A DNA stretch of 64,000 nt from an uncultured bacterium (GCA_963716555.1 CAVQTJ010000018.1:392413-456412); one strand, 5' to 3'. Counted from the stretch's first letter, positions 41,089-64,000 are shown. Notes: a model not told the origin generated them from the sequence alone. Translations and numbers: made by a program.

Positions 41089-42594
41089 GTGATCACTGAG
41101 GGTGAGGTCTCCCTGCTGGGAGTGCCGGTCACGCAGCATCGGCTGCGGCTCAGCGCCGTACCGGCGCTGGCTGCCGGCAACCCGGTGACCAGGATCTCCT
41201 CGCGACAGTGGCGGTCGGCGCTGATGACCGCAGATCTCGGCGCCGGCCTGGGGGCGGCGCTCGCCGCCGTCGTCGGCCGCTTCGGGGTCGACGAGCCGCT
41301 CGGCCCCAGCGGGCCGTACGTGGCACTGATCATCGCGGGCCCCCTGGCATGGGTCTGCCTCTTGATCATGAGCGGCGTCTACGACGAGCGCCGCATCGGC
41401 ACCGGTGGCGCCGAGTTCGGCCGGATCGCCAACGCCGCGCTGTACATGGTGGCGGCGATCGTCGCAGCCTCCTATGTCACCCGCAGCGACATGTCCCGAA
41501 CCGTCACCGCCGTCACCGTGGTCGCGATGGGCGCTCTCACCCTGGCCGTGCACCTCACCGGGCGATTGTTGCTGCGCCGGCGCATCCGGGGTGGGGGGGC
41601 CATCCACCGCGCCGTGGTGGTCGGGCCGGCTCCGGAGGTGCGCGACTTCGTCGACCACCTTGAACGGGTCTCCCATTCCGGGCTCAAGGTGGTCGGCATC
41701 TGCCTTGCGGAAGCCGAGCGGGCGGGCTCCGACGAGCCGGCGGCGACCTCCGCAAGCACCGTCGATGACATCATCCAGGCCGCGCGGCGTGCCGGAGCAG
41801 ACACCATCGCGGTCACCGGGTCGGGGGTTCTCAGTGGCGCCGAGTTGCGCCGCCTCTCCTGGGATCTCGAGGGTACCGGTCTGCGCCTCCTGGTCGCCCC
41901 TGGGGCCACCGAGCTGGCCGGGCCGCGCCTCCTGGTGCACCTGGTCGGGGGCCTGCCCCTGCTCCGCGTCAAGGAGGCTGACTTCTCGGGTCCGAGCTGG
42001 CTGCTCAAGTCGTCGCTCGACCGCTTCACCGCCCTCTTGCTCTGCACCGTGCTGAGCCCGCTGCTGGTCGGGATCGCCGTGGCCATCCGGCTGACCAGCC
42101 CGGGTCCGATCCTCTTCCGGCAGTCCCGCGTGGGCCTCCACGGCAGGGATTTCTCGATGCTCAAGTTCCGGACCATGCGCGACGGGGCTGAGGCCGACGC
42201 CGAGAACCTGCGCGAGCTCAACGAGCACGACGGCGTGCTGTTCAAGATCCGCGAGGACCCACGGGTCACCGGGGTGGGGCGATTCCTTCGTCGCTACTCC
42301 CTCGACGAGCTGCCCCAGCTGTTCAACGTCATCGGGGGCTCGATGTCGCTGATCGGACCACGCCCCCCGCTGCGCTCCGAGGTGGAGCGCTACCCACTCG
42401 ACCTCCGGCGCCGCCGGCTTCTGGTGAAGCCGGGGATGACCGGGCTGTGGCAGGTGAGCGGGCGTGCCGACCTCTCCTGGGAGGAGACCGTCCGCCTCGA
42501 CCTGCAGTACGTCGAGAACTGGTCGGTGCTTCTCGATGCGGTGGTGCTCTGGAAGACGTTCCGAGCGGTGGTCACCGGCCGCGGCGCGTACTGA
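41089..42594 (+). CDS. Polyprenyl-phosphate hexose-1-phosphate transferase (WbaP/WcaJ-type priming sugar transferase, PF02397).
   Basis: N-terminal TM helices and a CoA-binding-like domain, then the catalytic 'GPRPPL', 'SMLKFRTM', 'KPGMTGLWQVSGR' and 'DLQYVENWSVLLD'. Confidence 0.85.
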   Translation: MITEGEVSLLGVPVTQHRLRLSAVPALAAGNPVTRISSRQWRSALMTADLGAGLGAALAAVVGRFGVDEPLGPSGPYVALIIAGPLAWVCLLIMSGVYDERRIGTGGAEFGRIANAALYMVAAIVAASYVTRSDMSRTVTAVTVVAMGALTLAVHLTGRLLLRRRIRGGGAIHRAVVVGPAPEVRDFVDHLERVSHSGLKVVGICLAEAERAGSDEPAATSASTVDDIIQAARRAGADTIAVTGSGVLSGAELRRLSWDLEGTGLRLLVAPGATELAGPRLLVHLVGGLPLLRVKEADFSGPSWLLKSSLDRFTALLLCTVLSPLLVGIAVAIRLTSPGPILFRQSRVGLHGRDFSMLKFRTMRDGAEADAENLRELNEHDGVLFKIREDPRVTGVGRFLRRYSLDELPQLFNVIGGSMSLIGPRPPLRSEVERYPLDLRRRRLLVKPGMTGLWQVSGRADLSWEETVRLDLQYVENWSVLLDAVVLWKTFRAVVTGRGAY

Positions 42595-42606
42595 GGCCGG
42601 ACCGCG

Positions 42607-43287
42607 GTGCTCTGGCTCAACGGGCGGGAACAGCATCCCGACATCGCCATTGTCGGAGACAGCCTGACCGTCGGCGAGCACGCCTCGTCCCCTTTCCGGT
42701 CCTACCCACGCTTGGTCCACGCCGCCCTGAGCGCCGACGCCAATCGACGGCTGAGCTTCCGGGTGACCGCGGTGAGCGGAGCCAGAGTCGTCGACCTGGC
42801 GGGGCGAGAGCTCCCGATTGCGAGACGTGTGGCGATTGTCGAGGCCGGCACCAACGACTGGCTGGGTCAGCGGCCCGCCGGGCCCTGCCCGCCGACCGAG
42901 CTGGATGCGTTCGCGGCCGGCTACTGTCAGCTGCTGGATCGGGTCGACGATGGCCGCGCCGCCGCCCTGGTGTGCCTCGGCATCTGGGGGCCCAAAGGGC
43001 AGCGCGGCCGGATCGGCGGTCGCCTGGCCGAATACGAGGCGGCGATCAGCGCAGCCTGCGAGGTGCGTGGTGGCGTCATGGTCACTCTCTCCCCGGTGTA
43101 CGAGGAGGCCGCCGCACGTGGCCCGGCGGAGCGGCGGACACCATTCGGGGTCTCCGACGAGATGCACCCCAATGACCAGGGCCACGCCCGCATTGCCGAG
43201 CTGGTCATCGATGCCGTCCGGGAGGCCCTGTCACCCCACCGTCCGATCGTCACCCCGGAGGTGGAGTCGGCCGCTGCCGCCGGCTGA
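42607..43287 (+). CDS. SGNH/GDSL-family hydrolase.
   Basis: Block I is 'IVGDSLT', block III is 'GTNDW' and block V is 'DEMHPNDQGH'. Confidence 0.75.
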   Translation: MLWLNGREQHPDIAIVGDSLTVGEHASSPFRSYPRLVHAALSADANRRLSFRVTAVSGARVVDLAGRELPIARRVAIVEAGTNDWLGQRPAGPCPPTELDAFAAGYCQLLDRVDDGRAAALVCLGIWGPKGQRGRIGGRLAEYEAAISAACEVRGGVMVTLSPVYEEAAARGPAERRTPFGVSDEMHPNDQGHARIAELVIDAVREALSPHRPIVTPEVESAAAAG

Positions 43288-43298
43288 TCCGGGTTGGC

Positions 43299-44438
43299 TC
43301 AACCGGTCGCGTCCAGGCGAGAGGCGAAGCGCGGCCGCGATGAACTCCGTGCCGCCGTGGCCGGGGCGCCGAGAACCTCGAGACAAACCGCGGTGACCTC
43401 GGCGGTGCTGAGCCGATCCAGTCCGAGCACGCCGCGGCATGCAGGTGACTCGCACCCGGACAGCACTCCCCACCGTCCCAGCTCGCACCAGCTTCCCGCC
43501 GTGCGGCTGCCACCCGGCTGAAGAATGCGGCGAATCGGGCCCTCCACCATCCCGGTGTAGCGGGCGTCCTCGGGACCGAAGAGCACCACGCTCGGGGTCC
43601 CGACGGCGTCCGCGACCGATGCCGCGGCGCTGCTCACGCAGACCAGGAGATCCAGGCGGCGGATGACCTCGACCAGGGCGCCGAAGCTGGTGCGACCGGC
43701 TGCGCTGATCGGCGGCCGTGGCATCGCCCTCACGACCTCGGCCTGCAGCGCCAGCTCGTTGGAGGAGCCGGTGAGAACGATCCGGGCGCTGGCGTGGTCC
43801 TGAAGTGCCGTGGCCACCTCGGCGAAGCGCTCCGGCAGCCACTGCTGACATGACCAGTCCGAGCCAGGGTGGATGCCAACGAGAGGCCCCGAACCGCTCC
43901 CGATCAGGGTCTCCGCGGCCGCGACGTCGTCTGCTGTGGTGGGCAGCTCGACCGGCCCCCCGTCCTCCGGCACACCGAGGGCAGCCAGGACCCGCGCATT
44001 CTCCCGCCGCGCGAACTCAGGCTCAGTCGGCAGCGGGATCCGCTCTCTGAAGGTCTCCGAGCCATAGGCGAGGCCGGCGCGGATGGGGGATCCGACGGCA
44101 TCGGCGAGGAGGTGCATGGCGCGGACGCCGTTGTGGAGGACGACGGTTGCGTCGTACCGCGCCGGACGCAGCCGCGCGGCCAGAGCGGCGACCAGGGCCG
44201 CCTTTTCCACTCGAGCGAGCGGCTGCCCCTTGCGACGGAAGTCTCCCCATTGCAGCAGCCGGTCGACATGGGGCGAGCGACCGAGGATGGGCTCAGCGCA
44301 ACGGAGTCCAAGCACATCGATCCGCGACCCCGGGAGCGCCTCTCGAAGGCTGCGCAACGCTGGCGTGGCTGCCATGCTGTCGCCCAGATGGCCATAGGCG
44401 ATGATCAGAACCCTGCGGCACCCGGCCAGCTGGCTCAT
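43299..44438 (-). CDS. Glycosyltransferase family 9 (heptosyltransferase-like).
   Basis: 'RVLIIAYGHLGDSMAATPALRSLR' at the N-terminus and 'LDLLVCVSSAAASVADAVGTPSVVLFGP' at the C-terminus are typical of GT9. Confidence 0.7.
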   Translation of the reverse strand: MSQLAGCRRVLIIAYGHLGDSMAATPALRSLREALPGSRIDVLGLRCAEPILGRSPHVDRLLQWGDFRRKGQPLARVEKAALVAALAARLRPARYDATVVLHNGVRAMHLLADAVGSPIRAGLAYGSETFRERIPLPTEPEFARRENARVLAALGVPEDGGPVELPTTADDVAAAETLIGSGSGPLVGIHPGSDWSCQQWLPERFAEVATALQDHASARIVLTGSSNELALQAEVVRAMPRPPISAAGRTSFGALVEVIRRLDLLVCVSSAAASVADAVGTPSVVLFGPEDARYTGMVEGPIRRILQPGGSRTAGSWCELGRWGVLSGCESPACRGVLGLDRLSTAEVTAVCLEVLGAPATAARSSSRPRFASRLDATG

Positions 44439-44466
44439 CGGCGTACCAGGCGCCCAAGCCGCTCGC

Positions 44467-46218: not shown

Positions 46219-46219
46219 G

Positions 46220-47203
46220 TCAGGCACCGGGAGCAGGGGCAATTGGCGCATGCTGACGACGGCGCCCACTGTGACCCAGGTGCGGCCTCCGTCTGGTCTC
46301 ACGATCTCGAACTCGGCGCCCGATCAACAGCCGGGCAAGGCTCTCTTGCACCGCGCTGACCTCCAGCTCGCGGTGAATGGCCCATTCCGTCCACGGGAGC
46401 ACGACCGCCTGGAAGGAGCGGAGGCCCTCGGGCAGCTGCTGCTCACCCTTGCCGTACATGACCGGGACCAGCAGGACCATCCCTGCCTCGGGCACTCCCA
46501 CGGCGGCCACCTGCTGCGCGACTGAGCGGTAGGTCCGCCCACTGACCGGCGAGTCGTCGATGACAAGAACCAGGCCCGATCCGGCCGCCGCGCGCATTCG
46601 CCGTGCCTGACGTGCCCCAAACCCGCGATCCGGGCGACAGCTGAGCTCCTCGACGTGGGTGAATCCCAGCCGCCGCAGGGCCGCCCCCACCAATGGAGCG
46701 AGGTAGCTCCCGGATGTCCTGACGCCGAGGACGATGAGTGGCCGGCTCCGCTCGCTCCAAGTCACCGCAAATGCCTCCGCCAGCGCCACGCAGTCGGCTG
46801 GCTTCTGGTCCGCGGAGCGGAAGCAGGCGGGCAGGCGCAGGATCTCGCCTCTGAGCGCGCGCGGAAGCCGGGAAACGCGCCGGACGAGCGACTTCACCGC
46901 CTCCGCGAACCGGGCGCCGTCGGCGAAGGCATCTCCGTCCACGACGGCGTCGGCGGCAAGGCTGACGACCCTCTCGGCCTCTGCCTGCCAGGCGGCGAGG
47001 CGACGATCACCGATGCCCATGGCGCGGAGCCGGAGTCCGCCTCGCCGGCCCCATTCCACAGTCGAGGCGAGCATCGGCGATCTCCGCCGCACGAGCGCGA
47101 TGACCTTTCGCGTCCCGGCGAGGTCCCGCTGGAGGTGGTCTTCGGCGACCTGATTCAAACCGGCGAGACGGAGAAAGGCATTCGCCCAGTCCTCTTGCCG
47201 CAC
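46220..47203 (-). CDS. Phosphoribosyltransferase-domain (PRT type I) protein.
   Basis: 'LVLVIDDSPVSGRTYRSV' is the PRPP-binding loop, and 'LIVLGVRTSGSYLAPLVGAAL' precedes it. 327 aa. Confidence 0.55.
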   Translation of the reverse strand: MRQEDWANAFLRLAGLNQVAEDHLQRDLAGTRKVIALVRRRSPMLASTVEWGRRGGLRLRAMGIGDRRLAAWQAEAERVVSLAADAVVDGDAFADGARFAEAVKSLVRRVSRLPRALRGEILRLPACFRSADQKPADCVALAEAFAVTWSERSRPLIVLGVRTSGSYLAPLVGAALRRLGFTHVEELSCRPDRGFGARQARRMRAAAGSGLVLVIDDSPVSGRTYRSVAQQVAAVGVPEAGMVLLVPVMYGKGEQQLPEGLRSFQAVVLPWTEWAIHRELEVSAVQESLARLLIGRRVRDRETRRRPHLGHSGRRRQHAPIAPAPGA

Positions 47204-47456
47204 CGCCTCAGCCGCTAGCGCCAGCGGCGGTGTCGAAGCTGATGAGGAGGTTCGCCGCCTGGACGTGGCGCCGTCCCCGGGATCGCCGATCGCGTGTGCG
47301 CCGGCTCGCTGCGCGGCGGTGCGGACGTTCCGACCATGTCTCGATCATCACCGGCCCCGAGACGCTGCGGAATAGGAACTGTGCCACCTTCTGGGACGAT
47401 CGCCCGGTTCGCGTGGGACGAGCGTCCGTCCCGGCGCCGGTCCCCGATTGGCCCGA

Positions 47457-49499
47457 TCAAGCGGAGGCTAGCGTATCGACCAGGCGACGCTCCGCGAGGT
47501 GGCGGGCATATCGTGCAGCCGTTCTCGGAGTGACGTTGACCAGCTCCCCGGACGACCCGCCAGCTGCCATCCAGCGGCAGATTTCGAAGAGCGCCCCACC
47601 TCGCCGCCAAATCTCACCGGTGAAGGCCCACAGGCAGGTGTCAAGGGTGCCGATGAGCCATCCCGGTCGGCGGCCACGGAGCAACCGATGCTCGGCTCGT
47701 CGCAGGTCGGAGAGGTGGTTCACGGTGATGAAGGGCGACCAGCCGTCCCACCTTCCAGCGGTGTAGGTGAGGGCCACGATCCCGGGGACATCAACCACAA
47801 CTCGGGGAGGGCCGGAGAAGGACGAGGCAGTGAAGGCGTATTCGAAGCCCGCGTCCCGCACCGCCTCGAGCACCGTCCGGCCGGGCGGGCCCGGGCGGAA
47901 GTCGGTGAAGGGACGGATCGGCTCAAAGAGACGGCGGACGGGCGTCTGGCCGACGGTGCTCCGAAGGGATCGCCGCGAACGCTCGCTCCTTCCGGACTCG
48001 CCGACCGCTGAAGGCGGCCGGGGCTGGTAGCGCAGGCGCACGTATGGAGGGTCGGGGTGGGCGGCCAGCCGCTTCGCCGGCTGGCGGATGAGCGCGGCGT
48101 CCATCAACGGCCACCATCCTCGAGGGACACGCTCTCGCCCTCCAAGGCGGCTGCCGAGGTCGTCGACCGCCCGTTTCAGCGTTGCCGCGAACCGGTCCGC
48201 CGGTGCCTCGAACTCGAGCAACACGCCGAGGCCGGCACAGCCGAGGAGCGGCTCGACACGGGGAGCCAGGCCGCCCGAGCTGAGCGGGAACTCAGTGAGG
48301 GTCAGCGGCGGATGGGGCATGTGGGCGAAGCTCTCGGTGGTCAGCACCAACCCGCCCGCCGCTCCGGTGAGGCTCAGGATGTCCGCAAGCGGGTAGAGGT
48401 TCTCGAGCTCACGCGCCATGCCAGTCCAGAAGATGAGGGTTGACACCACCTTGCGTTGCCGCGCCCAAATCGCCAGCTCCGCGTCGTCAGGCTCATCGCC
48501 GGCCCAGGGGTTGCCCGGGAGAGGGGTACGCCATGCCGTGCCGAACTCGCGAAGCACGGGGAAGGGAGGTCTCCCCGGGTCAATCACCTGGAAGGCAGCG
48601 CCCAACCGTGAGAGAGCGAGGAAGTCGTCATCGTGGTGTTGGCGGCCGAAGACAACGGGGGTCTGGCCCAGCGGCTCCGCGAGACGCTCGATCACCTCCG
48701 TTTGCGGAGACCCGTGGATGGGTGCCCATCCCTCGCGGGTGGCGGTGGGGATCCATCTGCCGACAAGCTCAGCATCTCCGAGAACGAAGCCGCGCGTCGC
48801 CGTGGCCCAGCGCTCGGCCATCCAGGCGGTCTCCTCGGCGACCGACGTCGTCTGCGCGAGTCTCAGCTCCTTCGCTCCGGGAGAAGGGACGTCGGAGGCC
48901 CAGAGCGATTCGACCTCCCTGCCACCGCGAAGCGCGGCAAGGGCGGCCTCATCTCCCTCGGAGATCGCCAACAACCGGCGGTTCACGACCTCGGGGAATG
49001 CGAATGGCGTCAGTGACGATCCGGGGCAGCGACCCCCTCCGATCACGAGGAGAGTGTCGGGAACGGGGATCGGTGAGGACTCGAACATCTCCTGATAGAA
49101 GATGCCGACATCGGGGCTGCGCGAACGGAAGCTGACACCAGCGTCGTCGAGGGTGGCTGCGAGGACTGCCGGGCCCAGAGAGGCCGCTTCACAGTCGAAT
49201 CGCAGCAACAGCAGGAGGAGTTGCTCCAGGTGGTGAGCTCCGGTCAGAAGCCCCCCGCGCATCTGGTTCGGGTCGGACCCAGGAGGGAGGCCGCCGAAGT
49301 GGATGCCGGTCGGCCGGGCATCGTAATAACACTCGAACAGCTTCCCTTCAGAAGCGGCGAGCCAGGCGAGTGTGGCGCACACGGTGTCGCGGTGCGGATG
49401 CTGGGCCGAGGTGAGGAAGAGAAGGAGCCGGGGCCTCTCAGTCACTAACGCGAGTACCAGGGCCGGGCGCTCGACCCCTCCGATCCCCCAGGCGCGCAC
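47457..49499 (-). CDS. Large hypothetical protein of 680 aa, possibly a polysaccharide deacetylase or glycoside hydrolase. The upstream ORF 49445-49834 may be its N-terminus.
   Basis: Protein-like composition throughout, with no signature motif I recognise. The GTG start overlaps the upstream ORF. Confidence 0.4.
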   Translation of the reverse strand: MRAWGIGGVERPALVLALVTERPRLLLFLTSAQHPHRDTVCATLAWLAASEGKLFECYYDARPTGIHFGGLPPGSDPNQMRGGLLTGAHHLEQLLLLLLRFDCEAASLGPAVLAATLDDAGVSFRSRSPDVGIFYQEMFESSPIPVPDTLLVIGGGRCPGSSLTPFAFPEVVNRRLLAISEGDEAALAALRGGREVESLWASDVPSPGAKELRLAQTTSVAEETAWMAERWATATRGFVLGDAELVGRWIPTATREGWAPIHGSPQTEVIERLAEPLGQTPVVFGRQHHDDDFLALSRLGAAFQVIDPGRPPFPVLREFGTAWRTPLPGNPWAGDEPDDAELAIWARQRKVVSTLIFWTGMARELENLYPLADILSLTGAAGGLVLTTESFAHMPHPPLTLTEFPLSSGGLAPRVEPLLGCAGLGVLLEFEAPADRFAATLKRAVDDLGSRLGGRERVPRGWWPLMDAALIRQPAKRLAAHPDPPYVRLRYQPRPPSAVGESGRSERSRRSLRSTVGQTPVRRLFEPIRPFTDFRPGPPGRTVLEAVRDAGFEYAFTASSFSGPPRVVVDVPGIVALTYTAGRWDGWSPFITVNHLSDLRRAEHRLLRGRRPGWLIGTLDTCLWAFTGEIWRRGGALFEICRWMAAGGSSGELVNVTPRTAARYARHLAERRLVDTLASA

Positions 49500-49830: not shown

Positions 49831-50998
49831 TCATGCCGAGAGGCCGCTGGCCGCCAGCGCGCGAGGTCCGGCGATGTCCTCGTAGACGCCGACCAGCCTC
49901 TCCACCATGAGGTCGAGGTCGAAGTCAGCGGCTCGCCGCTGGGCAGCCCGTCCGATCCGCGCCAGCAGAGCAGGGTCGTCCAGCGCCTTGTCGACCTTCT
50001 GGGCGAGAGCGGTGGAGTCGCCCGGTGCGACCAAGAAGCCATCGACTGAGTCGGTGATCATCTCCGCCAGGCCCGTTCCCTCTGTTGCCACCACGGTGCG
50101 TCCGAGGACCATGGCTTCCAGACATGCGTTGGCGAGGCTCTCGAAGCGCGAGGGCATGACCACCAGGCTCGCACCTGCCACGATCGGAAAGAGGTGATTC
50201 TGCGTCGCGGCGGGCAAGAAATGCAGACGAGCCCACTGGTCACCACAGCGCTCGCGAGCGATGTCGGCGAACGGCCGTCCCTGCATGCCCAGGTCCTCAC
50301 CGACGAAGACGGCATGAATCTCTGGGTGGCTCTTGAGGACGGTGGGGAGCGCCTCGATCCACGTGTCCACGCCCTTGCGTCGCTCGAGGCGCCCGAAATA
50401 AAGAACATAGTCGAGCCCACGGAGGCTCGCGGGCAGGCGAGCAGCGTCGGCGCGGGGGGTCTGGATGCCGGTTGGAACGATGGTCACCGCGCCCGGGGAG
50501 AGCCGCCACCGCTGGGACACCTCGTCCGCGAGCACCCTGGAGGGTGAGATGAACTCGAGCGCTTCGGCGCGTCTGAGATCGCTCCAGCCAGCGTCGGACG
50601 AGCGCCACTGGGGGGCGCCGTCCGGCTGCGCGATCGTGTGCGTCGATGACGAAGTGGGGGGTCGCCAGCCGGGTTACGAGTTTGCCGCCTGCTCGCAGGG
50701 AGTACCACCAGGCCTCTCCCCCCCATTCGCACGCCTGGACGACGTCAAGCCGACCCAGGTGGTGAAGCGTCCGACTGACGACCCACGAGCGTGCCAGAGC
50801 CCTGGGTCGAACGCTGGGACTGGGGACCCGGTGGATCTGGACCCCGTCGACCAGTTCCGTCGTCAACCGGCTGGAGCCTGGCACGATCACATGGACCTCG
50901 TGTCCGAACCCCGCCAGCGCTCGAGCGGTCTTGTCCGTATATGCCCCGATCCCGCCTCCGCTCGGAGGCGACCCCGGACTGATCATGGCGATCCGCAT
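49831..50998 (-). CDS. GT4-family glycosyltransferase split by one frameshift at a G6 run (~50610-50615).
   Basis: The N-domain (ORF 50297-50998) reads 'MRIAMISPGSPPSGGGIGAYTDKTARAL' and the C-domain (ORF 49831-50535) reads 'LYFGRLERRKGVD...PSRFESLANACLEAMVLGRTVVATEGTGLAE'. Removing one C/G at the homopolymer joins 'HDRAAGRRP' to 'QWRSSDAGWSDLRRAEALEFISPSRVLADE'. Confidence 0.7.
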
Positions 50999-51135: not shown

Positions 51136-51858
51136 CTACGGATCCGTCCGACAAACGGCGAGGAAGTGCTTCGGCGCGAGGCTCGGCCCGAACGTACGCT
51201 CCTCGACTACGCGCAGGCCGGCGTCGGCGAGCATGCCCTGGAACTCCCGGTGACTGTGATGAGTGACGGTGGCGGCCCACTCCGGGAGAACACCGCCGGC
51301 TCGCCAGGTCTGAAGCCAGCGGGCCGGCCGCCGGCCCACATACGTTGGATACCGCAGCATCCAAAGCGCGTTGCGGTTACTTGCCTCGGCCAGGATCAGC
51401 CCGCCCGGCGCGACAACTCGGGACAGCTCGCGCAGGGTTGCTGTCGGATCGGGGAGGTGGCAGATGAGATCGACCGCGATGGCTGCGTCGAAGGAGCGAT
51501 CCCCAAAGGGGAGGGCCGCTCCCGCGTCCAAGCGAACGGTCTGCAAGGCGGAGGGCTGGATCCCGGCCGCCGCCGCGGTTCTGCGAGCCAGCTCCAGCAT
51601 CTCCTCAGAGATGTCGGCGAGCGTGACATGGTGGTGCTGGGCCAGAGGGACCGCCATCCGCCCCGGCCCGCCGCCGAGGTCGAGCACCCTTCCCGCTGGC
51701 AGCCTCCCGACGATCTCCACGACCGCGTCTCGCTTGGCCGCATACAGGTGGCGGAATGGGTTGTGCCGATCCTCCGGTCGGAAAAGGTCGACGTACTCGC
51801 CCCCCGTGAACACCGACCGTGTGAATGGATGCCTACCGGGCGAGGTGCCGGTCATCAT
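51136..51858 (-). CDS. Class I SAM-dependent methyltransferase.
   Basis: Motif I is 'VLDLGGGPGRM', with the post-I acidic residue in 'TLADIS' and motif II 'AAIAVDLICHL'. Confidence 0.75.
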   Translation of the reverse strand: MMTGTSPGRHPFTRSVFTGGEYVDLFRPEDRHNPFRHLYAAKRDAVVEIVGRLPAGRVLDLGGGPGRMAVPLAQHHHVTLADISEEMLELARRTAAAAGIQPSALQTVRLDAGAALPFGDRSFDAAIAVDLICHLPDPTATLRELSRVVAPGGLILAEASNRNALWMLRYPTYVGRRPARWLQTWRAGGVLPEWAATVTHHSHREFQGMLADAGLRVVEERTFGPSLAPKHFLAVCRTDP

Positions 51859-51898
51859 GCTTGCGGGTTCACAACTGCGCGGCGGGAGGACTGGTCAG

Positions 51899-53152
51899 TC
51901 ATCGCCGCCGCGCCGGGCCTCCGGTCACCTCAGCGTGAAAGGCTTCGAGACGGTTCGCGGCGGCCGTCCACCCGTAGTGGTCCACCATCAGCGAACGGCC
52001 CTCCGCTCCAAGGCGGGCGCCCAACGCGGGGTCGGCCATGAGGCGGAGGATCTGATCCGCCATCGCGTCCGGCTCATCGGCAAGGATCAGGTGCATGCCG
52101 GAAACGACATCGATGCCCGCGGCACCGACTGTGGTGCTGACCACCGGCCTTGCCATGGAGAGCGCCTCAAGGATCTTGAGCCGCGTGCCTCCTCCCGCTC
52201 GCAGCGGAGCGACCACCACGCCGGCCCGCTCGAGAAAAGGCCTGATGTCCGGCACCCATCCGGTGTAACGAACTCCTGCCAGCCCGCGGAGCGACGCCGG
52301 GACCTCGTCGCCCACAACCTCGAGCACCGCACCCGGCCTGACCCGTCGCACTCGCGGCAGGACACGCCGGGCGAACCAGGCGACCGCGTCCGCATTGGGC
52401 CGGTAATTCATCTTGCCGACGAAGACCATCCGCTCCGGGTCCGCAGCCGCCCTGGCGGGCCGCAGCCGATCGGTATCCACGGCGTTGGGCACGACCGTCG
52501 TGGGCAGGCCGGTGCACGTCCGCCTGACCACGGCCTCGTCGCCGAGGGACGTGGTCACGCAGCCATCCGACCGACCCCAGGCCTCCCGCTCGTCGTGTCG
52601 GACCTTGTTGGCCTCGACGGCGCCATAGAGGCGCCGGACCGGAGAGGACTCCACCCGCGCCACCTGCCGAAGAAGGTCGTACTCGATGTTGTGCTCATCC
52701 AAGACCACTGCGGTGGTGCCGAAGTCGAAGCACATCATGGCGCTCGACTCGACCTGGACCATGTCGAAGCCGCCGCCAGCCAGCTCCTCCTGGATGGCCC
52801 GCTGCATCGCCTGGGATCGAAGCGCGCTGAGGTGGAAGGAGGAGCGGCCGCAGAGCGAGATGAGCTGGCGCCGACGTCGGGACCTGAAGGACGGCGGCGG
52901 CTGGACTGGGCGAACCCGGTGGAGGCTGCGGGCGAGCTCCGACCAGTCGCTGAGCTGGGCGGAGGACGCATAGGCGAGGAGGGTCACCCGGTGCCGACGT
53001 GCCAGCTGGGTCGCGAGATGGAAGACTCGCACTCCGAAGCCCCAGGTCGGCGGCGCTGGGGCTTCCGGACACACCAGCAGCACTCTTCGAGCCTCCGGTT
53101 CAACGTCCGCCGCGGGCACCACGCACCGGTCTCCTCGGGTCAGCATCATCAA
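51899..53152 (-). CDS. GT4-family glycosyltransferase.
   Basis: The C-terminal Glycos_transf_1 signature reads 'RVVVAPLRAGGGTRLKILEALSMARPVVSTTVGAAGI'. Confidence 0.7.
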   Translation of the reverse strand: MMMLTRGDRCVVPAADVEPEARRVLLVCPEAPAPPTWGFGVRVFHLATQLARRHRVTLLAYASSAQLSDWSELARSLHRVRPVQPPPSFRSRRRRQLISLCGRSSFHLSALRSQAMQRAIQEELAGGGFDMVQVESSAMMCFDFGTTAVVLDEHNIEYDLLRQVARVESSPVRRLYGAVEANKVRHDEREAWGRSDGCVTTSLGDEAVVRRTCTGLPTTVVPNAVDTDRLRPARAAADPERMVFVGKMNYRPNADAVAWFARRVLPRVRRVRPGAVLEVVGDEVPASLRGLAGVRYTGWVPDIRPFLERAGVVVAPLRAGGGTRLKILEALSMARPVVSTTVGAAGIDVVSGMHLILADEPDAMADQILRLMADPALGARLGAEGRSLMVDHYGWTAAANRLEAFHAEVTGGPARRR

Positions 53153-53324: not shown

Positions 53325-54362
53325 TTATCGATGCGACGCCAGGTCGGCGAGGTCCTGAGCCAGGCGACCGGCATACAGCCGCAGGCTGAACCGGGCCACC
53401 GCCTCGTCCCGGGCGTTGCCGCCGAGCCGGCGCCGTTGTGCTGGGCTTTCCAGCAACGTCCGCAGCGCTGATCCAAGCGCCCGAGGGTCACCCGGCGGCA
53501 CCAGCACCCCAGTCTCTCCGTCCAGGACGACTCCCGCCAGGCCCTGCGTCGCAGACACCACGGTGGGTTTGCCCATCGCCATCGCCTCCAAGACCGTGGT
53601 TACCCCGGCAGGGAAGTCCGTTTCGATGAGCGGAACCACCACCACCTGAGCCCGCGCGTAGATCTGGCGGAGCTCCTGGTAGCCGACTCTCCCGCGTTGC
53701 ACGCTCACCGGCCAGTTGATCGGCGCCGAGCGTCGGGCGCCAGGATTGTGGAGGCTGGCATCGGAGACGAAGACCCGTGCCGGCAGGGTGGCACAGGCCT
53801 CAGCCAGGCTGCGGTAATCTCGGTGCTCGCGGCCGGGGGCGGCGATCAGAGGCTCCTCCGCGACGGCCTGCGGCGCCCAGAAGTCGGTGTCGACTCCGTA
53901 GTGCACGAGTTCCACCTTCCCATTGGCGAGCCCAAGGCGGCGCCGTGCCAGTCGGAGCTGGCGCGTGGAATGCACCAGGATCCGATCGATACGCCGTTCG
54001 GCGTGGAGAACGCGGAAGCAGGGCACTTTGGCCGTTGTGGTCAGATGATGGCCGATCATCAGATGGGGGGCGCTGATGCCCAGGGCACGCATCGCCAGGG
54101 CGAGCGGGATTCCAAGGTGCTCGCCATCCGTCAGCACCGCCTCGGCTCGGGCGACGGGGCGCAGCGCCACCCCGACGTGGCGGAGGGATCGGGTCATGCT
54201 GCGGTGTCCCCCCTTCCGATCGGCCAGAGCCGACCAATCCAGGAGGCGCACCCCGTACGCCAACTCGAGCCTCAGAAACTCGGGGCACGGCCGCTGCAGG
54301 TCGGCAACTTCGGACCGGAGACGTGGAGTCACGTCAGCTGAAACCAGCATGATCCGGGTCAC
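53325..54362 (-). CDS. GT4-like glycosyltransferase.
   Basis: 'VVVVPLIETDFPAGVTTVLEAMAMGKPTVVSATQGLAGVVLDGETGVLVPPGD' is the GT-B C-domain E-x7-E region. Confidence 0.65.
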   Translation of the reverse strand: MTRIMLVSADVTPRLRSEVADLQRPCPEFLRLELAYGVRLLDWSALADRKGGHRSMTRSLRHVGVALRPVARAEAVLTDGEHLGIPLALAMRALGISAPHLMIGHHLTTTAKVPCFRVLHAERRIDRILVHSTRQLRLARRRLGLANGKVELVHYGVDTDFWAPQAVAEEPLIAAPGREHRDYRSLAEACATLPARVFVSDASLHNPGARRSAPINWPVSVQRGRVGYQELRQIYARAQVVVVPLIETDFPAGVTTVLEAMAMGKPTVVSATQGLAGVVLDGETGVLVPPGDPRALGSALRTLLESPAQRRRLGGNARDEAVARFSLRLYAGRLAQDLADLASHR

Positions 54363-54363
54363 T

Positions 54364-55554: not shown

Positions 55555-55797
55555 CGCGCCGGGAGAATCACCTGGTGATGGGACGGGATGGGGGCGACGA
55601 CCTGGGGGTTGTTGGAATGTCCCTGGGCGAATGTCCCAAGGCGATCGAGATCACACTCTTCGCCATGGGGGCTCCGGCGCCGAGACAGGCGCCCACCGCG
55701 GGCTGCGGCATCCCATGGATCGCCTGGCCGGATTGCGCCTAACCTCGTAGGTGGCATGGAGAGTTGAGCGGACCGGGCGACGCGCGCGAGCATCATC

Positions 55798-59128: not shown

Positions 59129-61113
59129 ACAGTCTTGCGGAATCTGGGCGCAATGTAGGTTCGTGAGCGGCGATCGATGGGGTAGCGGAAGCTGGTTGCG
59201 GCACCTCGACCAAAGGCCACGAAGCTGCGCACCCCCGAGGCAGGCCGCAGGAGGACGAGTCTTCTCCAGCTGATGGTTCGAAGCCATATGAGAACCAGGC
59301 AAAAAACCGCGGCCGGGTCGCCTCGGCGGATGTGCTTCATAACCAGTGCGCCCTGCGAGAACAAGTAACCGGCCTGCAGCCGGCGCCCCTCCGTCTTCCA
59401 CTCCTTGAGCTCATGATGCACCACCGCCGGCTGAGCAACCACCACAACCGCGTACCCGAGCTGCAGAACCCGATACATGAGGTCGAAGTCCTCGCCGGCC
59501 TTGAGCGGAGCCCCCACGCCGAGGAGCTCGTCGAAGCCTCCCGCCGTACGGAGCGGTTCGGTTCGAAAGACCAGATTGGCCCCTCCCAGCCGGCTGACCT
59601 GATAGGCCAACCAACGGGTTCGGTACACCCACTCCCCCGTCGGGGAGAAGGAGGGCGTGTAGTAAGCGTCCGAAGCATCGGCTGCTGCGGTGATCCCCCC
59701 GCAGACCATGGCCGCCTCCGAGTGCCTGGCAAGGATCAGCTCCATGTCGGAGATCCAGCCCCGGGGAACCACGCAGTCATCATCTGTGAAGGCGATGAGC
59801 TCGCCACGGGCTCGAGCCAGTCCTAGGTTGCAGGAGGTGGACCTGCCCGCGGTTTGCGAGCGGACGTACGAGAAACGCGGGTCGTCGCCCACAGTCTGCT
59901 CATAGGCGCGCTGGGCGGTGTCGTCCTGGCTCTGGTCAACGACGATGACCTCGAAGCTCTGGTGCTCCAAACGAGCCAGGCTATCCAGCGTCGGGATTAT
60001 TCCCACGCCGCGATTGCGGGTCGGGATGCAGACGGTGGCACGAGGCGCCCGATCCGAGGCGGGCGGGTTCGGGGCAGTTGCGGTGATAGGGAGTCCGGGG
60101 TCTGCTTCTGGCGCCGTGGGCGACGTGCTGGTGCGCCACCACTCGGCGGGGTCGAGAGCTCGCCGCCTCTTCCTCGCCGAACCGCTGCGTTGAACTCGAA
60201 CGTAGGTCCGGAAACTCCGGTCGATCGGATAGCGGAAACTCATGAGCGCACCCGCGACGAAGGCGGTGAAGGTGGTCACCCCCGTGGGTCGCCGAAGCTG
60301 AGCGATGTTGGCCCACTTGACCTGCCGAGCACCCCGGACGACCAGAGAGGGGACGAAGGCGGCATCGCCGCACCGAAGGTGTTTCATGCATATCGCGCCG
60401 TCTGACATCGAATACGTCCACAGCCGCGGCCTGATCTGCTGCCCGACCCTGTAACCGTAATGCACCACGGCTGGCTCTGGAACGTCCAGGATCCAGTGGC
60501 CGCGGCGCAGCAGCCTGCAGAGCACGTCAGAGTCCGTTCCCGCGCCCACGGGGGCCCCCGGCCCCAGGATCTCATCGAAGCCTCCGATGTCACGCAGCAT
60601 CTGGGCGCGAACCGCCATGTTCGCCCCGATGCCCCTGGACTGGTACGCCAGCAACACCGAGCGGTGCAATCGCGGCCGCGGCGGTGTGAAGGTTGGCACG
60701 AACCCTCGGTCGCGATTGGGCAGACCGGCTGTGACGCCGCCGCAGATCGCTGCCACCCGCGGGACAACCTCCATCGCGCTCTCCATCCCAGCGAGCCAGT
60801 CCGGCGGGGCCACGCAATCGTCGTCAGTGAAGGCGAGGATCGTGCCTCTCGCGCGGCCCAGGGCGAGATTGCAGGCGATGGGCTTGCCGACGGTCTCCGA
60901 GGGGATGTACGAGAAGCGCGGATCATCGCCGACTGTCTTGCGATAGGCGCGCTCCGAAAGCTCGTCGACGCTCTGGTCCACCACAATGACCTCGTAGCTG
61001 TCGTGCTTCTGCCGCCGAAGACTCTCGAGGGTGGGGGCGATGGTGACCCCTCGGTCCCGGGTCGCCAGGCAGACAGTGATCCGCGGGAGCTTTGACGGGG
61101 CTGGCTCGCTCAC
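59125..61113 (-). CDS. Tandem-domain GT2 glycosyltransferase with two complete GT-A modules in one polypeptide.
   Basis: Module 1 reads 'ITVCLATRDRGVTIAPTLESLRRQKHDSYEVIVVDQSVDE...LAFTDDDCVAPPDW'. Module 2 reads 'ATVCIPTRNRGVGIIPTLDSLARLEHQSFEVIVVDQSQDD...IAFTDDDCVVPRGW'. The two internal repeats share about 50% identity by eye. Confidence 0.75.
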   Translation of the reverse strand: MSEPAPSKLPRITVCLATRDRGVTIAPTLESLRRQKHDSYEVIVVDQSVDELSERAYRKTVGDDPRFSYIPSETVGKPIACNLALGRARGTILAFTDDDCVAPPDWLAGMESAMEVVPRVAAICGGVTAGLPNRDRGFVPTFTPPRPRLHRSVLLAYQSRGIGANMAVRAQMLRDIGGFDEILGPGAPVGAGTDSDVLCRLLRRGHWILDVPEPAVVHYGYRVGQQIRPRLWTYSMSDGAICMKHLRCGDAAFVPSLVVRGARQVKWANIAQLRRPTGVTTFTAFVAGALMSFRYPIDRSFRTYVRVQRSGSARKRRRALDPAEWWRTSTSPTAPEADPGLPITATAPNPPASDRAPRATVCIPTRNRGVGIIPTLDSLARLEHQSFEVIVVDQSQDDTAQRAYEQTVGDDPRFSYVRSQTAGRSTSCNLGLARARGELIAFTDDDCVVPRGWISDMELILARHSEAAMVCGGITAAADASDAYYTPSFSPTGEWVYRTRWLAYQVSRLGGANLVFRTEPLRTAGGFDELLGVGAPLKAGEDFDLMYRVLQLGYAVVVVAQPAVVHHELKEWKTEGRRLQAGYLFSQGALVMKHIRRGDPAAVFCLVLIWLRTISWRRLVLLRPASGVRSFVAFGRGAATSFRYPIDRRSRTYIAPRFRKTV

Positions 61114-61338
61114 CCCGGCAGGCTACCGCCAGCCCAGGGCAGGGGCGAATGGGCGTGTGGTCGCGCGTAGATTGTGCGTCCCATCCTCATCGGGACAGCG
61201 TCCCGACTCCTCACAACGCCATCCGGGACCACGGGGCCACCCCGGGACATGCGCCCAGTCGAGGAGGGACAGCACCCACAGCTGCCGATGATCTTCCCAT
61301 TCCCTCCACGGGTCCTAGGTCCGAGACTGGAAAACGTC

Positions 61339-62370
61339 ATGCGGTTCCTGGAGACTTTATTCCGCCACCGGCTCCTGGCCATCGTGCCGATCGTTCTCGG
61401 GCTGGTGGTTGCCGCTGGCTACGAGCTGTGCCAGCCTCGGGAATTCACGTCCACGGCCAGCGTTTGGGTTGACGCCTCCGTTCCTGGGAACGGTCTCAAC
61501 AACTCGAGCGACCAGTACGTCGACCCCTCGACCGTGGAGCAGTCCGAGATGCAGCAGCTGCTCTCCAGCCGCTCCTTCTCGCTGGCGGTCGGAGATTCAG
61601 GGCCGCTGGCGGGCTACCTCGCCTCCCATCCCGCTGCCGAGGTCACCGGTCTCGGCGCCATCCCGGGTCTCGGATCGATGTTCAGCAGCAGTGCCCGGGC
61701 GTCGGTCAGCGACCAGATCGCCAATGACCTCGAGAGCATGATCGACGTCGAGAGCACGGGACCCCAGGTCGTGACGATCACCGTGACCGCGCCCGATCCG
61801 GCGGTCGCCGCAGGGACGGCCAAGGCCTTCCTGACCGAGTACACGGCGCAGACCGTGGCGGCTCAGAAGGCGACCGACCAGACCTCGCTCACCTACTACG
61901 GACAGCAGCTTTCCCAGGCCCAGGTCACCCTCCAGCAGGCGCAGACCGCGCTCTCCAGCTTCCAGAAGGCGAATCCCACCGTCCCCGCCAATGGATTGGG
62001 CAACGCCACAGCGACCGAGCTGCTCCAGGCAGTCACTCTTGACACCACCACCTACCAGTCGGTGCTCAACCAGTATGAGCAGGCCCAGCTGAACCTGGTC
62101 GACGTCAACGCCCAGACCGGCTTCCAGGTCCTCGACTCGCCGACCGCCAACGGCTCTCCGGTGAGCATCTCCAAGAAGCTGCTCGGGGCCGGGATCGCCG
62201 GTCTCGTGGCCGGCCTGCTGGTCAGCATCCTTCTGATCTCCGCCCTCACCGCGGCGGACCGCTCGGCCCGCCGATCCGAGGATGTTCAGCGTCTCGGTCT
62301 CCAGGTGGCCGCCAGCGTCCAGGACCTCCCCCGCGGGACTCTGCCCAGCGCCCCGCTGGTGGAGACATGA
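61339..62370 (+). CDS. wzz: Polysaccharide co-polymerase / chain-length determinant (Wzz, GumC-like PCP). The probable start is 'MRFLETLFRHR'.
   Basis: N-terminal TM 'LLAIVPIVLGLVVAAG', a long periplasmic coiled-coil-like region, then a C-terminal TM 'LLGAGIAGLVAGLLVSILLISAL'. Confidence 0.65.
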   Translation: MRFLETLFRHRLLAIVPIVLGLVVAAGYELCQPREFTSTASVWVDASVPGNGLNNSSDQYVDPSTVEQSEMQQLLSSRSFSLAVGDSGPLAGYLASHPAAEVTGLGAIPGLGSMFSSSARASVSDQIANDLESMIDVESTGPQVVTITVTAPDPAVAAGTAKAFLTEYTAQTVAAQKATDQTSLTYYGQQLSQAQVTLQQAQTALSSFQKANPTVPANGLGNATATELLQAVTLDTTTYQSVLNQYEQAQLNLVDVNAQTGFQVLDSPTANGSPVSISKKLLGAGIAGLVAGLLVSILLISALTAADRSARRSEDVQRLGLQVAASVQDLPRGTLPSAPLVET

Positions 62371-63104
62371 GCAGCGAGCCGCTCCGGGCTGATCACCTCG
62401 CCCGCGTGTCCCCGCTGCATCCCAGCCGTCGGGGCCGTGAGCCGGTCGAGGATCGGTCCTTTGGGCTGGCGGAGGCGGAGCGGCTGGTGCCGGCCGAGGT
62501 TCTGCGCGCGTGCCGAGAGGCGCTGCAGCGCTTCGTCTCGACAGATCCCCCCAGCTACGGCGTCACCAGCGCGATTCGGGGGGAGGGTCGGAGCAGCATC
62601 GCACTCGGCTTCGCCCTGGCAGAGTGGCTCGACCACGAACGCCGGACGGTCATCGTGGACCTGGATCTCGAGGCGCCCGCGCTGCATCGGCGGCTGGGGC
62701 TGCGCGAGCGGCCCGGGCTCGAGCAGGTCGTGGACGGGCAGGCACACGTCGAGGACTACGTTCAGCGAGCCATCGGCGACGTCTGGCTGCTCAGCGCCGG
62801 GGCACCTGGCGTCGATGCCCCGCGCGCCCTCAACCGGTTTGCCCAGAGCACTCTGCTCTCGCAGCTCAGCGAGTGGGCGGAGGCGGTGGTATTCGATCTC
62901 CCGCCACTCCTCGGCTCGCCGACCGGACTGGAGGCCAGCCGGCTCTGCACCACGCCAGTCATGGTGGTGAGGGCAGGGGTCACCCCTCTGCCTCGGGTCA
63001 AGGAAGCGGTGGAGCTTCTCTCGGTCAAGCCACCGGTGGTGCTCAACGGCGTGTCCACCCGCATCCCTCGTTGGTTGCGGCGGGCTGCGGGCGACTGGTC
63101 GTGA
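62367..63104 (+). CDS. BY-kinase / CpsD-like ATPase (MinD/ParA fold) with a degenerate Walker A (GEGRSS where GEGKST is expected).
   Basis: The Walker A reads 'VTSAIRGEGRSSIALGFALA' and the Walker B-like hydrophobic strand plus Asp reads 'VIVDLDLEAP'. Its position directly after wzz is typical for a Wzc-type kinase split. Confidence 0.55.
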   Translation: MSSEPLRADHLARVSPLHPSRRGREPVEDRSFGLAEAERLVPAEVLRACREALQRFVSTDPPSYGVTSAIRGEGRSSIALGFALAEWLDHERRTVIVDLDLEAPALHRRLGLRERPGLEQVVDGQAHVEDYVQRAIGDVWLLSAGAPGVDAPRALNRFAQSTLLSQLSEWAEAVVFDLPPLLGSPTGLEASRLCTTPVMVVRAGVTPLPRVKEAVELLSVKPPVVLNGVSTRIPRWLRRAAGDWS

Positions 63105-63112
63105 TATGGCCC

Positions 63113-63244
63113 ATGCTCATGCTCGCAGGCCTGGTGACGGCCGGCCTGCTCTGGCGTGAGCGTCCCCGGCGCGCCCAGGCTGTCGCTCTGCTGGTGATCG
63201 TCGTCGGTCTCAGCTATGCCTGGCTAGGGCTGGGCAAGGTCTGA
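63113..63244 (+). CDS. Possible small single-TM peptide of about 43 aa.
   Basis: 'MLMLAGLVTAGLLWRERPRRAQAVALLVIVVGLSYAWLGLGKV'. Very short, so confidence is low. Confidence 0.2.
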   Translation: MLMLAGLVTAGLLWRERPRRAQAVALLVIVVGLSYAWLGLGKV

Positions 63245-63248
63245 GCGC

Positions 63249-64000
63249 CGTGGCGCTCGCCACCCTCTCCGCGGCCAACTTCCAACAGGCGCAGAAGAAC
63301 CGGGCGTGGCTCGCGGCGCCGATCGCCATCACTCTGGCCATCCTGCTCGGTCTCCTGGCGGGGATGCTGAGTGGCGGCCGCTCCTTCCTCGCTATCGGCG
63401 TGGTACTGGCCCTGGCTGTGCCCTTTGTGTGGTGGCGGGCGCCGGCATCTGGCGTGGTCACCCTGCTGGGCTGCTCCACGGTGATCGAGCAGTTCCAGTA
63501 TTCGGTTGGCATCCCCGGGCTCGACGCCTTCACCGACAAGATCCCGGTCTTCACGAGCCTCTCCAGCGGTTTGAACGCGACCGGGCTGTTCATGAGCCCG
63601 ATGGACATCGCGGTGGTGGTCCTGCTGCTGGTCTGGCTCACCCGGGGAGTCACTGAGCGGAGCCTCAGGATCCCGCGAACCCAGGTGGCCGCCGCCATCG
63701 GGGTGATGCTGCTGCTCGCCACCCTGGCGCTGCTGAGGGGTCTGACCAGCACCGCCCCCGGGGCCGGGGGCGAGAGCGCGGCGTCGGCCTCCCTGTGGGA
63801 GTACCGACCCTGGATCTACATGGCCGCCGCCTTCCTGTTCTCGTCCCAGGTCATCCGCACTCGACGGGCGGTCCAGGCCGTGCTCTGGGCCTTCGTCCTG
63901 GGCACCGGGTTCAAGGCGGTGCAGGGCGTGTACATCTTCTTCGAGACCCGCAACGAGATCCCCAGGCCGGAGGCCATCCTGGCCCATGAGGAATCGGTCT
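63249..64000 (+). CDS. Wzy-like O-antigen polymerase/ligase-family membrane protein. The N-terminus is in the window and the C-terminus runs off the right edge.
   Basis: My translation from the GTG at 63249 gives a multi-TM protein: 'VALATLSAANFQQAQKNRAWLAAPIAITLAILLGLLAGMLSGG...LRIPRTQVAAAIGVMLLLATLALLRGL...WIYMAAAFLFSS'. It is not in the ORF track because it has no stop inside the window. Confidence 0.55.

Follow-up and report, generated by a model that had tools for sequence, protein, structure and literature searches.

A probable Wzx/Wzy-dependent heteropolysaccharide locus of Candidatus Dormibacterota, with a candidate glycan-tailoring module

Capsule and exopolysaccharide (EPS) loci of the Gram-positive type, such as S. 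aureus Cap5/8 (CapA-CapB), S. pneumoniae (CpsC-CpsD) and B. subtilis (EpsA-EpsB), combine a polytopic or Bac_transf priming transferase (PGT), multiple GT2 and GT4 glycosyltransferases (GTs), a Wzx flippase, a Wzy_C-type polymerase and a polysaccharide co-polymerase (PCP) with two transmembrane (TM) helices, after which comes a P-loop partner encoded by a separate gene in translational coupling; they have no OPX exporter. In another group of glycan enzymes, the dual-domain gPRT and PRP ribofuranosyltransferases (Kelly et al. 2022, summarised in PMC11127046 and PMC11194591), ribofuranose is incorporated by a transfer of ribose-5-phosphate dependent on phosphoribosyl pyrophosphate (PRPP), followed by a 5'-dephosphorylation by a HAD phosphatase, and their gPRT fold is said to diverge from every phosphoribosyltransferase (PRTase) known. 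We describe here a locus lying in a stretch of 64,000 nucleotides (nt) from an uncultured bacterium (GCA_963716555.1 CAVQTJ010000018.1:392413-456412), the whole of which is called the window. This locus has the general organisation of the Gram-positive-type loci, with a candidate PCP and a P-loop partner homologous to CapB, and is very probably the Wzx/Wzy-dependent biosynthesis cluster by which an uncultured soil bacterium of Candidatus Dormibacterota would make a complex heteropolysaccharide with decorations (secreted, capsule-like or wall-associated). As an EPS locus it is of an ordinary kind and had been correctly identified; the only parts with real discovery potential are a module composed of a GT9 gene and the genes of two proteins of 955 and 680 amino acids (aa), and a Tyr-less homologue of the bacterial tyrosine kinases (BY-kinases) with an Arg variant.

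Genes were chosen by their third-position GC content ahead of annotation, in a window of about 69% G+C, and the window products were scanned against the Pfam and NCBIfam hidden Markov models (HMMs) with curated cut-offs. A dense string of genes was found from 41089 to the right edge of the window:

41089..42594, plus strand: priming polyprenyl-phosphate hexose-1-phosphate transferase (large polytopic PGT); Bac_transf 222 bits, TIGR03025 399 bits (cut-off 296)
42607..43287, plus strand: SGNH/GDSL hydrolase without signal peptide; Lipase_GDSL_2 63.5 bits, GDSL motif at residues 17-20
43299..44438, minus strand: GT9-family (heptosyltransferase-like) glycosyltransferase; Glyco_transf_9 83 bits
44467..47337, minus strand: gene of the 955-aa multidomain enzyme, broken here into the open reading frames (ORFs) 46220-47203 and 44467-46302
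47457..49499, minus strand: soluble protein of 680 aa from a family lacking annotation; no match to Pfam, NCBIfam or PDB sequences
49831..50998, minus strand: GT4 glycosyltransferase, frameshifted here; N-half and C-half match GT4 models in two different frames
51136..51858, minus strand: S-adenosylmethionine-dependent methyltransferase; Methyltransf_25 and Methyltransf_11, about 75 bits each
51899..53152, minus strand: GT4, closest to TIGR03087 'stp1'; Glyco_trans_1_4 93.6 bits, TIGR03087 242 bits (cut-off 317)
53325..54362, minus strand: GT4; Glyco_trans_1_4 66 bits
54364..55554, minus strand: GT4; Glyco_trans_1_4 88 bits, Glyco_transf_4 45 bits
55798..56784, plus strand: GT2; Glycos_transf_2 59.8 bits
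56781..57494, plus strand: CE4 (NodB-type) deacetylase; Polysacc_deac_1 112.5 bits
57461..59128, plus strand: Wzx-type flippase (MOP superfamily); Polysacc_synt 69.8 bits (cut-off 28.2), Polysacc_synt_3 61.7 bits, about 12 TM helices
59125..61113, minus strand: tandem GT2 of 662 aa with two GT2 domains; Glycos_transf_2 147.6 bits in 2 stretches
61339..62370, plus strand: PCP-2b-like polysaccharide co-polymerase; Wzz 24.7 bits (cut-off 25.5), TIGR03007 58 bits (cut-off 279)
62367..63104, plus strand: P-loop protein of the BY-kinase family; phmmer against PDB gives VpsO 1.2e-12, BceF 4.4e-10, CapB 6e-6
63250..64000, plus strand: first 250 codons of a membrane protein of 516 aa with a Wzy_C domain, putative Wzy polymerase, with a full-length copy on a near-identical contig (L002)

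The family assignments exceed the curated cut-offs for the PGT, the Wzx, the GT2s, the GT4s, the GT9, the CE4, the methyltransferase, the SGNH hydrolase and the full-length Wzy_C protein. A preliminary description of this DNA had proposed a Wzx/Wzy locus which includes functions for methylation and de-N-acetylation and continues beyond the right edge of the window, and the HMM scans and the synteny support it. All but three of its domain calls pass the cut-offs at the positions listed above, including the PGT, SGNH, GT9, methyltransferase, GT2, tandem GT2, CE4 and Wzx; as to the possibility that the flippase and the PCP were unrelated transporters, the Wzx passes Polysacc_synt clearly, and the PCP has a weak score and a fitting architecture. 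The figure of at least eight GT genes is right only when the PGT is counted, the Leloir GT genes being seven (four GT4, one GT2, the tandem GT2 and the GT9), and among the four GT4 calls three are intact and pass whereas the fourth (49831-50998) is frameshifted in the window. The PGT has five TM helices predicted by the TM scan. The CE4 protein displays the canonical metal and catalytic motifs TFDDG, HGYSH and LLHD (the Asp-His-His triad set), has neither TM helix nor signal peptide and, because of the missing signal peptide, probably acts on the cytoplasmic side. For the GT9, the family-level Pfam model Glyco_transf_9 is the only one passed, and the score is below the cut-offs of all the lipopolysaccharide (LPS) heptosyltransferase equivalogs (RfaC, RfaF, RfaQ and heptosyltransferase III), the best being TIGR02201 with 85.7 against 170.2 bits.

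At the right end, the PCP and the BY-kinase-family genes are translationally coupled (4-nt overlap) and lie directly upstream of the Wzy_C gene. The TM scan placed two helices of the PCP at about residues 67-85 and 342-360 of the long ORF, on both sides of a loop of about 250 aa, a two-TM topology which fits a polysaccharide co-polymerase; the Wzz/PCP call made earlier is therefore weak by its scores, under the cut-offs, but is backed by the architecture of two terminal helices around a loop. The product of the following gene (62367-63104) has no match in Pfam. Its VDLDL and FDLPP motifs (Walker A' and Walker B) align with those of BY-kinase domains, its Walker A motif reads GEGRS, in which Arg takes the position of the Lys in VpsO, BceF and CapB, and no C-terminal Tyr cluster is present, the whole protein having two Tyr only (64 and 131) and its last 110 residues being free of Tyr. 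The sole homologue examined, 39% identical and encoded in a distant locus (L011) of a metagenome-assembled genome (MAG), has GEGRT and is also devoid of the Tyr cluster. Since the two features that define BY-kinases, the Walker A Lys and the Tyr cluster, are both lacking, the protein is not filed as one of them and is probably not an autophosphorylating tyrosine kinase. The homology implied by its first designation, a BY-kinase-like ATPase, holds for VpsO, BceF and CapB. Such a variant has discovery potential and is worth biochemical attention.

The 250 codons of the last ORF present in the window gave by themselves no match in the HMM scans. The full 516-aa protein, found on a contig 99.9% identical (L002), matches Wzy_C with 42.2 bits (cut-off 31.7) and has at least 10 TM helices, so that the designation of the truncated edge gene as a Wzy-like protein of the polymerase/ligase family is confirmed on near-identical contigs. 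This gene runs about 0.8 kb past the window and is followed, on three near-identical contigs, by a hexapeptide-repeat acyltransferase gene and then by a convergent GH5 glycanase gene. The right-hand extension called for in the preliminary description consequently places the end of the locus about 2.5 kb past the window. Immediately after the locus, contig L001 (10861-17705; ENA ERZ25039509 contig_170766) carries a two-component pair (HisKA_3/LuxR) surrounded by a GH16-like gene and three genes of GH5 'cellulases', and these glycosidase-family genes may encode polymer-processing or polymer-degrading enzymes linked to the EPS locus. Compared with window positions 54632-64000, this contig shows 11 gap positions in 9.4 kb, splitting the Wzx and PCP genes; it looks like a long-read assembly with indel errors, unfit for judging gene integrity.

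On the left side, four further genes come before the PGT:

33438..35573, plus strand: membrane-anchored GT2 fused to WecG/TagA (GT26), 711 aa; Glyco_tran_WecG 190 bits, Glyco_tranf_2_3 74 bits
35360..36778, plus strand: membrane O-acyltransferase Acyl_transf_3; Pfam 102 bits, syntenic in L013
37102..37866, minus strand: extracytoplasmic function (ECF) sigma factor; TIGR02937 83 bits, 57% identical to an orthologue adjoining the PGT in L013
38118..41054, minus strand: LAL-type regulator with AAA_16, TPR and LuxR/GerE helix-turn-helix domains, divergent from the PGT; GerE 55.7 bits, AAA_16 48.3 bits

In L013, a relative whose proteins are 48-62% identical to those of the window (48% for the 955-aa orthologue), the order SGNH, PGT, ECF sigma factor, Acyl_transf_3 protein and GT2-GT26 fusion is kept together with the orientations, without the LAL gene; the GT2-GT26 orthologue is 62% identical and has the same position relative to the PGT. 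As the GT2-GT26 fusion, the acyltransferase and the ECF sigma factor keep their synteny with the PGT, the conserved block starts at about 33.4 kb, the fusion is probably the left part of the locus, and the left boundary formerly set at 41089 was too tight. In window-equivalent coordinates, the locus would then extend from about 33.4 to about 66.5 kb. The true start of the Acyl_transf_3 gene is probably downstream of 35573. Both the LAL regulator and the ECF sigma factor, previously put forward as the likely controllers, are real by their domain content. As regards control itself, the sigma factor is syntenically conserved, its role being inferred, whereas the LAL gene, present in a contig of the same species (L014), is absent from L013 and is a weaker candidate; the ECF sigma factor is then the better supported of two putative regulators.

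Beside the ECF sigma factor, no separate anti-sigma gene is evident. An ORF at 36508-37065 on the minus strand was considered for this function and rejected as Arg/Pro-rich junk overlapping the acyltransferase gene. The sigma factor itself has a C-terminal extension with an H-x3-C-x2-C motif (EGHLTECPRC) and a conserved upstream Cys, resembling a zinc-binding anti-sigma (ZAS) motif fused to the sigma factor, and this motif is kept in the 57%-identical orthologue (L013 10678-11427, ERHLSACARC). Upstream of the GT2-GT26 fusion, at 68 nt and on the same plus strand, lies the gene of an AMP-binding (adenylate-forming) enzyme (31699-33369), a possible source of activated acyl substituents for the Acyl_transf_3 protein nearby.

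The host had been taken for an actinobacterium. An exact-protein look-up returned three contigs 99.7-99.95% identical to the window, one of which is JBAUTO010000279.1 of GCA_049582245.1 (99.8-99.9% identical); because a 100%-identical protein is named by NCBI as belonging to a Candidatus Dormiibacterota MAG, the host is assigned to this lineage and the actinobacterial origin is withdrawn. Dormibacterota are uncultured bacteria which abound in cold, dry soils and whose best-known activity is the oxidation of trace gases. Our literature search found nothing specific on their EPS, and a well-delimited surface-polysaccharide locus offers a genetic entry point to the way in which they might form a protective matrix.

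Between 44467 and 49499, about 5 kb, the preliminary description had overlooked two large genes, those of the 955-aa and 680-aa proteins. The two ORFs into which the first one is broken in the window overlap by 83 nt, and the 955-codon gene is intact in three other contigs (L004, L014 and L015). The domains of the protein follow the order: helical N-terminal domain, type-I PRTase-like domain, APH/choline-kinase-like domain, HAD-IIB (Cof-type) phosphatase and C-terminal His/Cys motif, the latter (H-x4-C-x2-C) being almost invariant; its AlphaFold2 model has a pLDDT of 89.9. The PRTase-like domain is matched by Pfam Pribosyltran in 45 of the 94 family members (best E=1.1e-6), the family profile gives weak matches to PyrR and APRT in PDB, Foldseek gives PRTase probabilities of 0.97-0.98, and a GVRTSG loop and a DDPPxTG PRPP-type motif are conserved. 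The middle domain resembles APH/choline-kinase folds by Foldseek against a small viral library, with probabilities of 0.98-0.99 and marginal E values of 0.02-0.04. By sequence, its profile gave no hit in PDB, the hhalign comparison with the APH domain of a Kitasatospora protein was not significant, a word-indexed homology search returned two matches which are both family members, and an exhaustive profile search retrieved only proteins of the same architecture among the 150 matches listed. The HAD domain is matched by Pfam Hydrolase_3 and by Foldseek (1kyt 7.7e-10, target-normalised TM-score 0.81; family profile 5.6e-11), its four catalytic motifs are all kept (DxD at D677/D679, SGR, K835 and GDxxxD at D858/D862), and its matches include sucrose-phosphate, trehalose-phosphate and mannosyl-3-phosphoglycerate phosphatases.

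The 955-aa family comprises at least 849 clusters (50% identity), nearly all of one architecture, from Dormibacterota, Chloroflexota and Actinomycetota. The Ter-associated PRTase/StiP/ATP-grasp pathway was considered as a relative and dropped: among the 94 members, PRTase_2 was matched once, marginally (0.051), PRTase-CE once (0.2), and TRSP, ATPgrasp_Ter and StiP not at all. No characterised member of the 955-aa or the 680-aa family was found, and the literature gave nothing specific on a combination of PRTase, HAD and GT9.

The 680-aa protein has about 100 homologues in the homology search, mostly from Dormibacteria, including a 100%-identical 680-aa cluster (P0075), and neither it nor 45 relatives matched any Pfam, NCBIfam or PDB sequence. 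Its AlphaFold2 model, built from 45 homologues (pLDDT 90.8), predicts two Rossmann-like domains in the N-terminal half and a (beta/alpha)7 barrel of the NodB/GH57/ArnD type in the C-terminal half, with Foldseek matches to 3rxz (2.5e-5), 1k1x (1.8e-4) and 8t0j, an ArnD (6e-3). The CE4 His pair and the Asp-His-His metal triad are not among the invariant residues of the family.

In the window, the genes GT4-GT4-GT4-methyltransferase-GT4-680-955-GT9 form one same-strand string with short gaps. The part of this order running methyltransferase-GT4-680-955-GT9 is repeated in L012, where the 955-aa orthologue is 64% identical, and L013 shows the order 680, a 466-aa protein, GT9 and 955, then SGNH, PGT, ECF sigma factor, acyltransferase-3 and GT2-GT26. 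The two families recur beside Wzx/Wzy-type loci in Kitasatospora azatica, in a Mycobacteriales MAG and in other MAGs. The 955-aa family is found without the 680-aa family or GT9 in Kitasatospora and in L009, and the 680-aa family without the 955-aa family in L010 and L011; in every informative context, each of them lies within or beside Wzx/GT-rich glycan loci. Because each occurs without the other and always in such a setting, both families are, judging by gene context, accessories of glycan loci that can be separated from one another. Among the related Dormibacterota-like contigs examined, the 680-aa, 955-aa and GT9 genes appear as a module. These two sizeable families, which travel with glycan loci, are worth biochemical attention.

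Some neighbours of these genes were also looked at. A 624-aa neighbour of the Kitasatospora 955-family gene was tried as a 680-family member and rejected (BLASTP E=0.8). Directly after the 955-family gene of Kitasatospora azatica (L006 13066-15516), an 816-aa fusion joins a weak Polysacc_synt (flippase-like) membrane domain to an APH-type kinase domain. In L010 and L013, the genes found with the 680-aa family include APH-like or P-loop kinase-like ones, so that domains of kinase type are a repeated feature of such glycan loci.

Concerning the function of the GT9/955/680 module, we advance as a speculative proposal, one that we regard as doubtful, that it is a new glycan-tailoring module performing the PRPP-dependent addition of a pentofuranose (or of a related phospho-sugar) to the lipid-linked repeat unit, the PRPP being used by the type-I PRTase domain of the 955-aa protein. 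A two-step sugar-phosphate pathway is an alternative for the module.

Compared with GCA_049582245.1 over about 30 kb, the window shows four indels only, all +1 insertions and none in a long homopolymer. One insertion near 50552 splits the GT4 gene into two overlapping ORFs; it is common to L004 (ERR12036785), an independent short-read assembly, and is absent from L005 and L014, the GT4 being intact with 384-388 codons in GCA_049582245.1 and SRR28061374. The other three, at about 47265, 47221 and 46310, are unique to the window and affect the 955-aa gene, two of them in the low-confidence N-terminus and one at the linker between PRTase and kinase domains. All four could be assembly or sequencing errors of the source contig, the locus being intact in the real organism, and this is a serious possibility, though not the favoured one, given that three other assemblies, from strains about 99.8% identical, have an unbroken 955-aa gene, and two of these an unbroken GT4. 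Yet the small number of indels over this length, their positions outside long homopolymers, the GT4 insertion found again in the short-read assembly, and the location of the 955-aa insertions at sites (N-terminus and domain linker) which look like tolerated variation or gene fission all argue for the opposite. A real strain variation, with loss or fission of tailoring functions, is somewhat more likely, and the sharing of the GT4 insertion with an independent assembly suggests a natural on/off polymorphism of glycan decoration. As one GT4 and the 955-aa gene are frameshifted, the glycan made by the window strain, if any, may differ from that of its sister strains, and the locus supplies markers for strain comparison with two genes polymorphic by frameshift among strains about 99.8% identical.

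Several points weigh against a Wzx/Wzy-dependent polymer. In the window copy, frameshifts interrupt two genes of the long minus-strand operon, the PCP is below both the Pfam and the NCBIfam cut-offs, a classical phosphorylation cycle is unlikely with a BY-kinase homologue deprived of the catalytic Lys and of the Tyr cluster, and Wzy_C also covers ligases (WaaL/PglL), so that the polymerase role is putative. Some of these points would suit a short glycan ligated to an acceptor (O-glycosylation of proteins or S-layer, wall-linked polymer, or LPS-like core/O-antigen), with the Wzy_C protein as a WaaL/PglL-type ligase and the GT9 as a core-type heptosyltransferase: the Pfam Wzy_C model is the 'O-antigen ligase' domain, a single membrane protein of this type is present, GT9 is classically a family of the LPS core, and the BY-kinase homologue looks non-catalytic. 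We consider this scenario quite improbable. Coupled PCP-2b-like and BY-kinase-family genes directly upstream of the Wzy_C gene are a hallmark of capsule and EPS polymerisation modules, the scanned regions showed no genes for lipid A, Lpt or heptose nucleotides, and the GT9 is far below every LPS heptosyltransferase equivalog cut-off. Moreover, Dormibacterota are a sister lineage of Chloroflexota, which are monoderm, within Terrabacteria (PMC10608941). No Poly_export/OPX (Wza) domain was found in any gene scanned or listed, including the right-hand continuation, and the lack of such an outer-membrane exporter would fit a putative monoderm-type envelope. It is also conceivable that independent systems lie side by side, namely a Wzx/Wzy core, a wall-polymer module with the GT2-GT26 fusion and the acyltransferase, and a GT9/955/680 module making a small glycoconjugate (soluble or lipid-linked, compatible-solute-like or nucleoside-like). 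Such a juxtaposition, which would agree with the occurrence of each family without the other (in Kitasatospora and L009, and in L010 and L011) and with HAD-IIB phosphatases being typical of two-step compatible-solute pathways, is unlikely when set against the constant location of both families inside or beside Wzx/GT-rich loci and against the window and L012, where the 680-aa and 955-aa genes stand in the middle of a string of a single strand with short gaps.

The reading that we retain, a single Wzx/Wzy-dependent cluster, leads to the following putative mechanism, drawn from established knowledge of the families. The PGT would transfer hexose-1-phosphate to polyprenyl phosphate, and up to seven cytoplasmic GTs (four GT4, one GT2, the tandem GT2 and the GT9) would build the repeat unit on this lipid carrier. 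The decoration would take place on the cytoplasmic side through the methyltransferase, the CE4 de-N-acetylase devoid of signal peptide and the SGNH protein acting as esterase or acyltransferase, together with the hexapeptide acyltransferase encoded just past the window. As a working hypothesis, the GT9/955/680 module would add ribose-5-phosphate from PRPP, followed by 5'-dephosphorylation. The Wzx protein would then flip the repeat unit and the Wzy_C protein would polymerise it, the polymerisation being modulated by the PCP-2b-like co-polymerase and its separate P-loop partner of the BY-kinase family. The order of the steps, the cytoplasmic decoration (from absent signal peptides) and the role of the module are what we infer in this scheme.

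Two other features of the window were recorded. The minus strand at 20407-24018 encodes a subtilase-family (S8) peptidase of 1203 aa whose C-terminal domain is Fn3-like and which has no relation to the glycan locus. ARAGORN predicted a tRNA-Pro (AGG) of 99 nt at 11897-11995 on the minus strand; with Rfam, no tRNA reached the gathering threshold anywhere in the window, and this prediction is probably a false positive.

Relative to the Gram-positive-type loci with which it shares its general organisation, the window locus differs by its P-loop partner, having Arg for the Walker A Lys and no C-terminal Tyr cluster, by its host phylum, Dormibacterota, and by the addition of the GT9/955-aa/680-aa module; neither a cognate phosphotyrosine phosphatase nor an LCP ligase gene was seen. 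EPS loci associated with PEP-CTERM/XrtA provide the best NCBIfam models for the PCP (TIGR03007, chain-length determinant), the kinase-like protein (TIGR03018, tyrosine autokinase) and one GT4 (TIGR03087, 'stp1'), and their models for the deacetylase (TIGR03006) and the PGT (TIGR03013) also match the CE4 and the PGT of the window. In contrast with these loci, the window scores are well under the cut-offs (e.g., 75.6 against 230.7, 58 against 279 and 242 against 317), and the scanned region revealed neither an exosortase nor a PEP-CTERM protein. The 680-aa protein, for its part, shares with the NodB/CE4, GH57 and ArnD superfamily the (beta/alpha)7-barrel fold predicted for its C-terminal half, but it has no detectable sequence similarity with this superfamily, no CE4 Asp-His-His triad among its invariant residues, and a barrel fused to an N-terminal double Rossmann-like region.

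Lastly, the 955-aa protein can be compared with the gPRT/PRP ribofuranosyltransferases. It differs from them by a transferase domain resembling type-I PRTases (Pribosyltran, PyrR/APRT), by a phosphatase which is a Cof-type HAD-IIB, and by an additional APH/choline-kinase-like domain between transferase and phosphatase; furthermore, no ribofuranosyltransferase chain (Thermobacillus composti and Klebsiella prototypes) was matched by phmmer or by the profile search of PDB sequences. On these grounds, the family comparisons place the 955-aa protein outside the gPRT/PRP family. As in gPRT/PRP systems, it joins a PRPP-binding-type domain to a HAD phosphatase with intact motifs, inside glycan loci, and the logic of a ribose-5-phosphate transfer followed by a 5'-dephosphorylation would fit it. 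If the proposal made above for the module is true, this would represent a second, independently evolved solution to PRPP-dependent glycosylation of the gPRT/PRP type.

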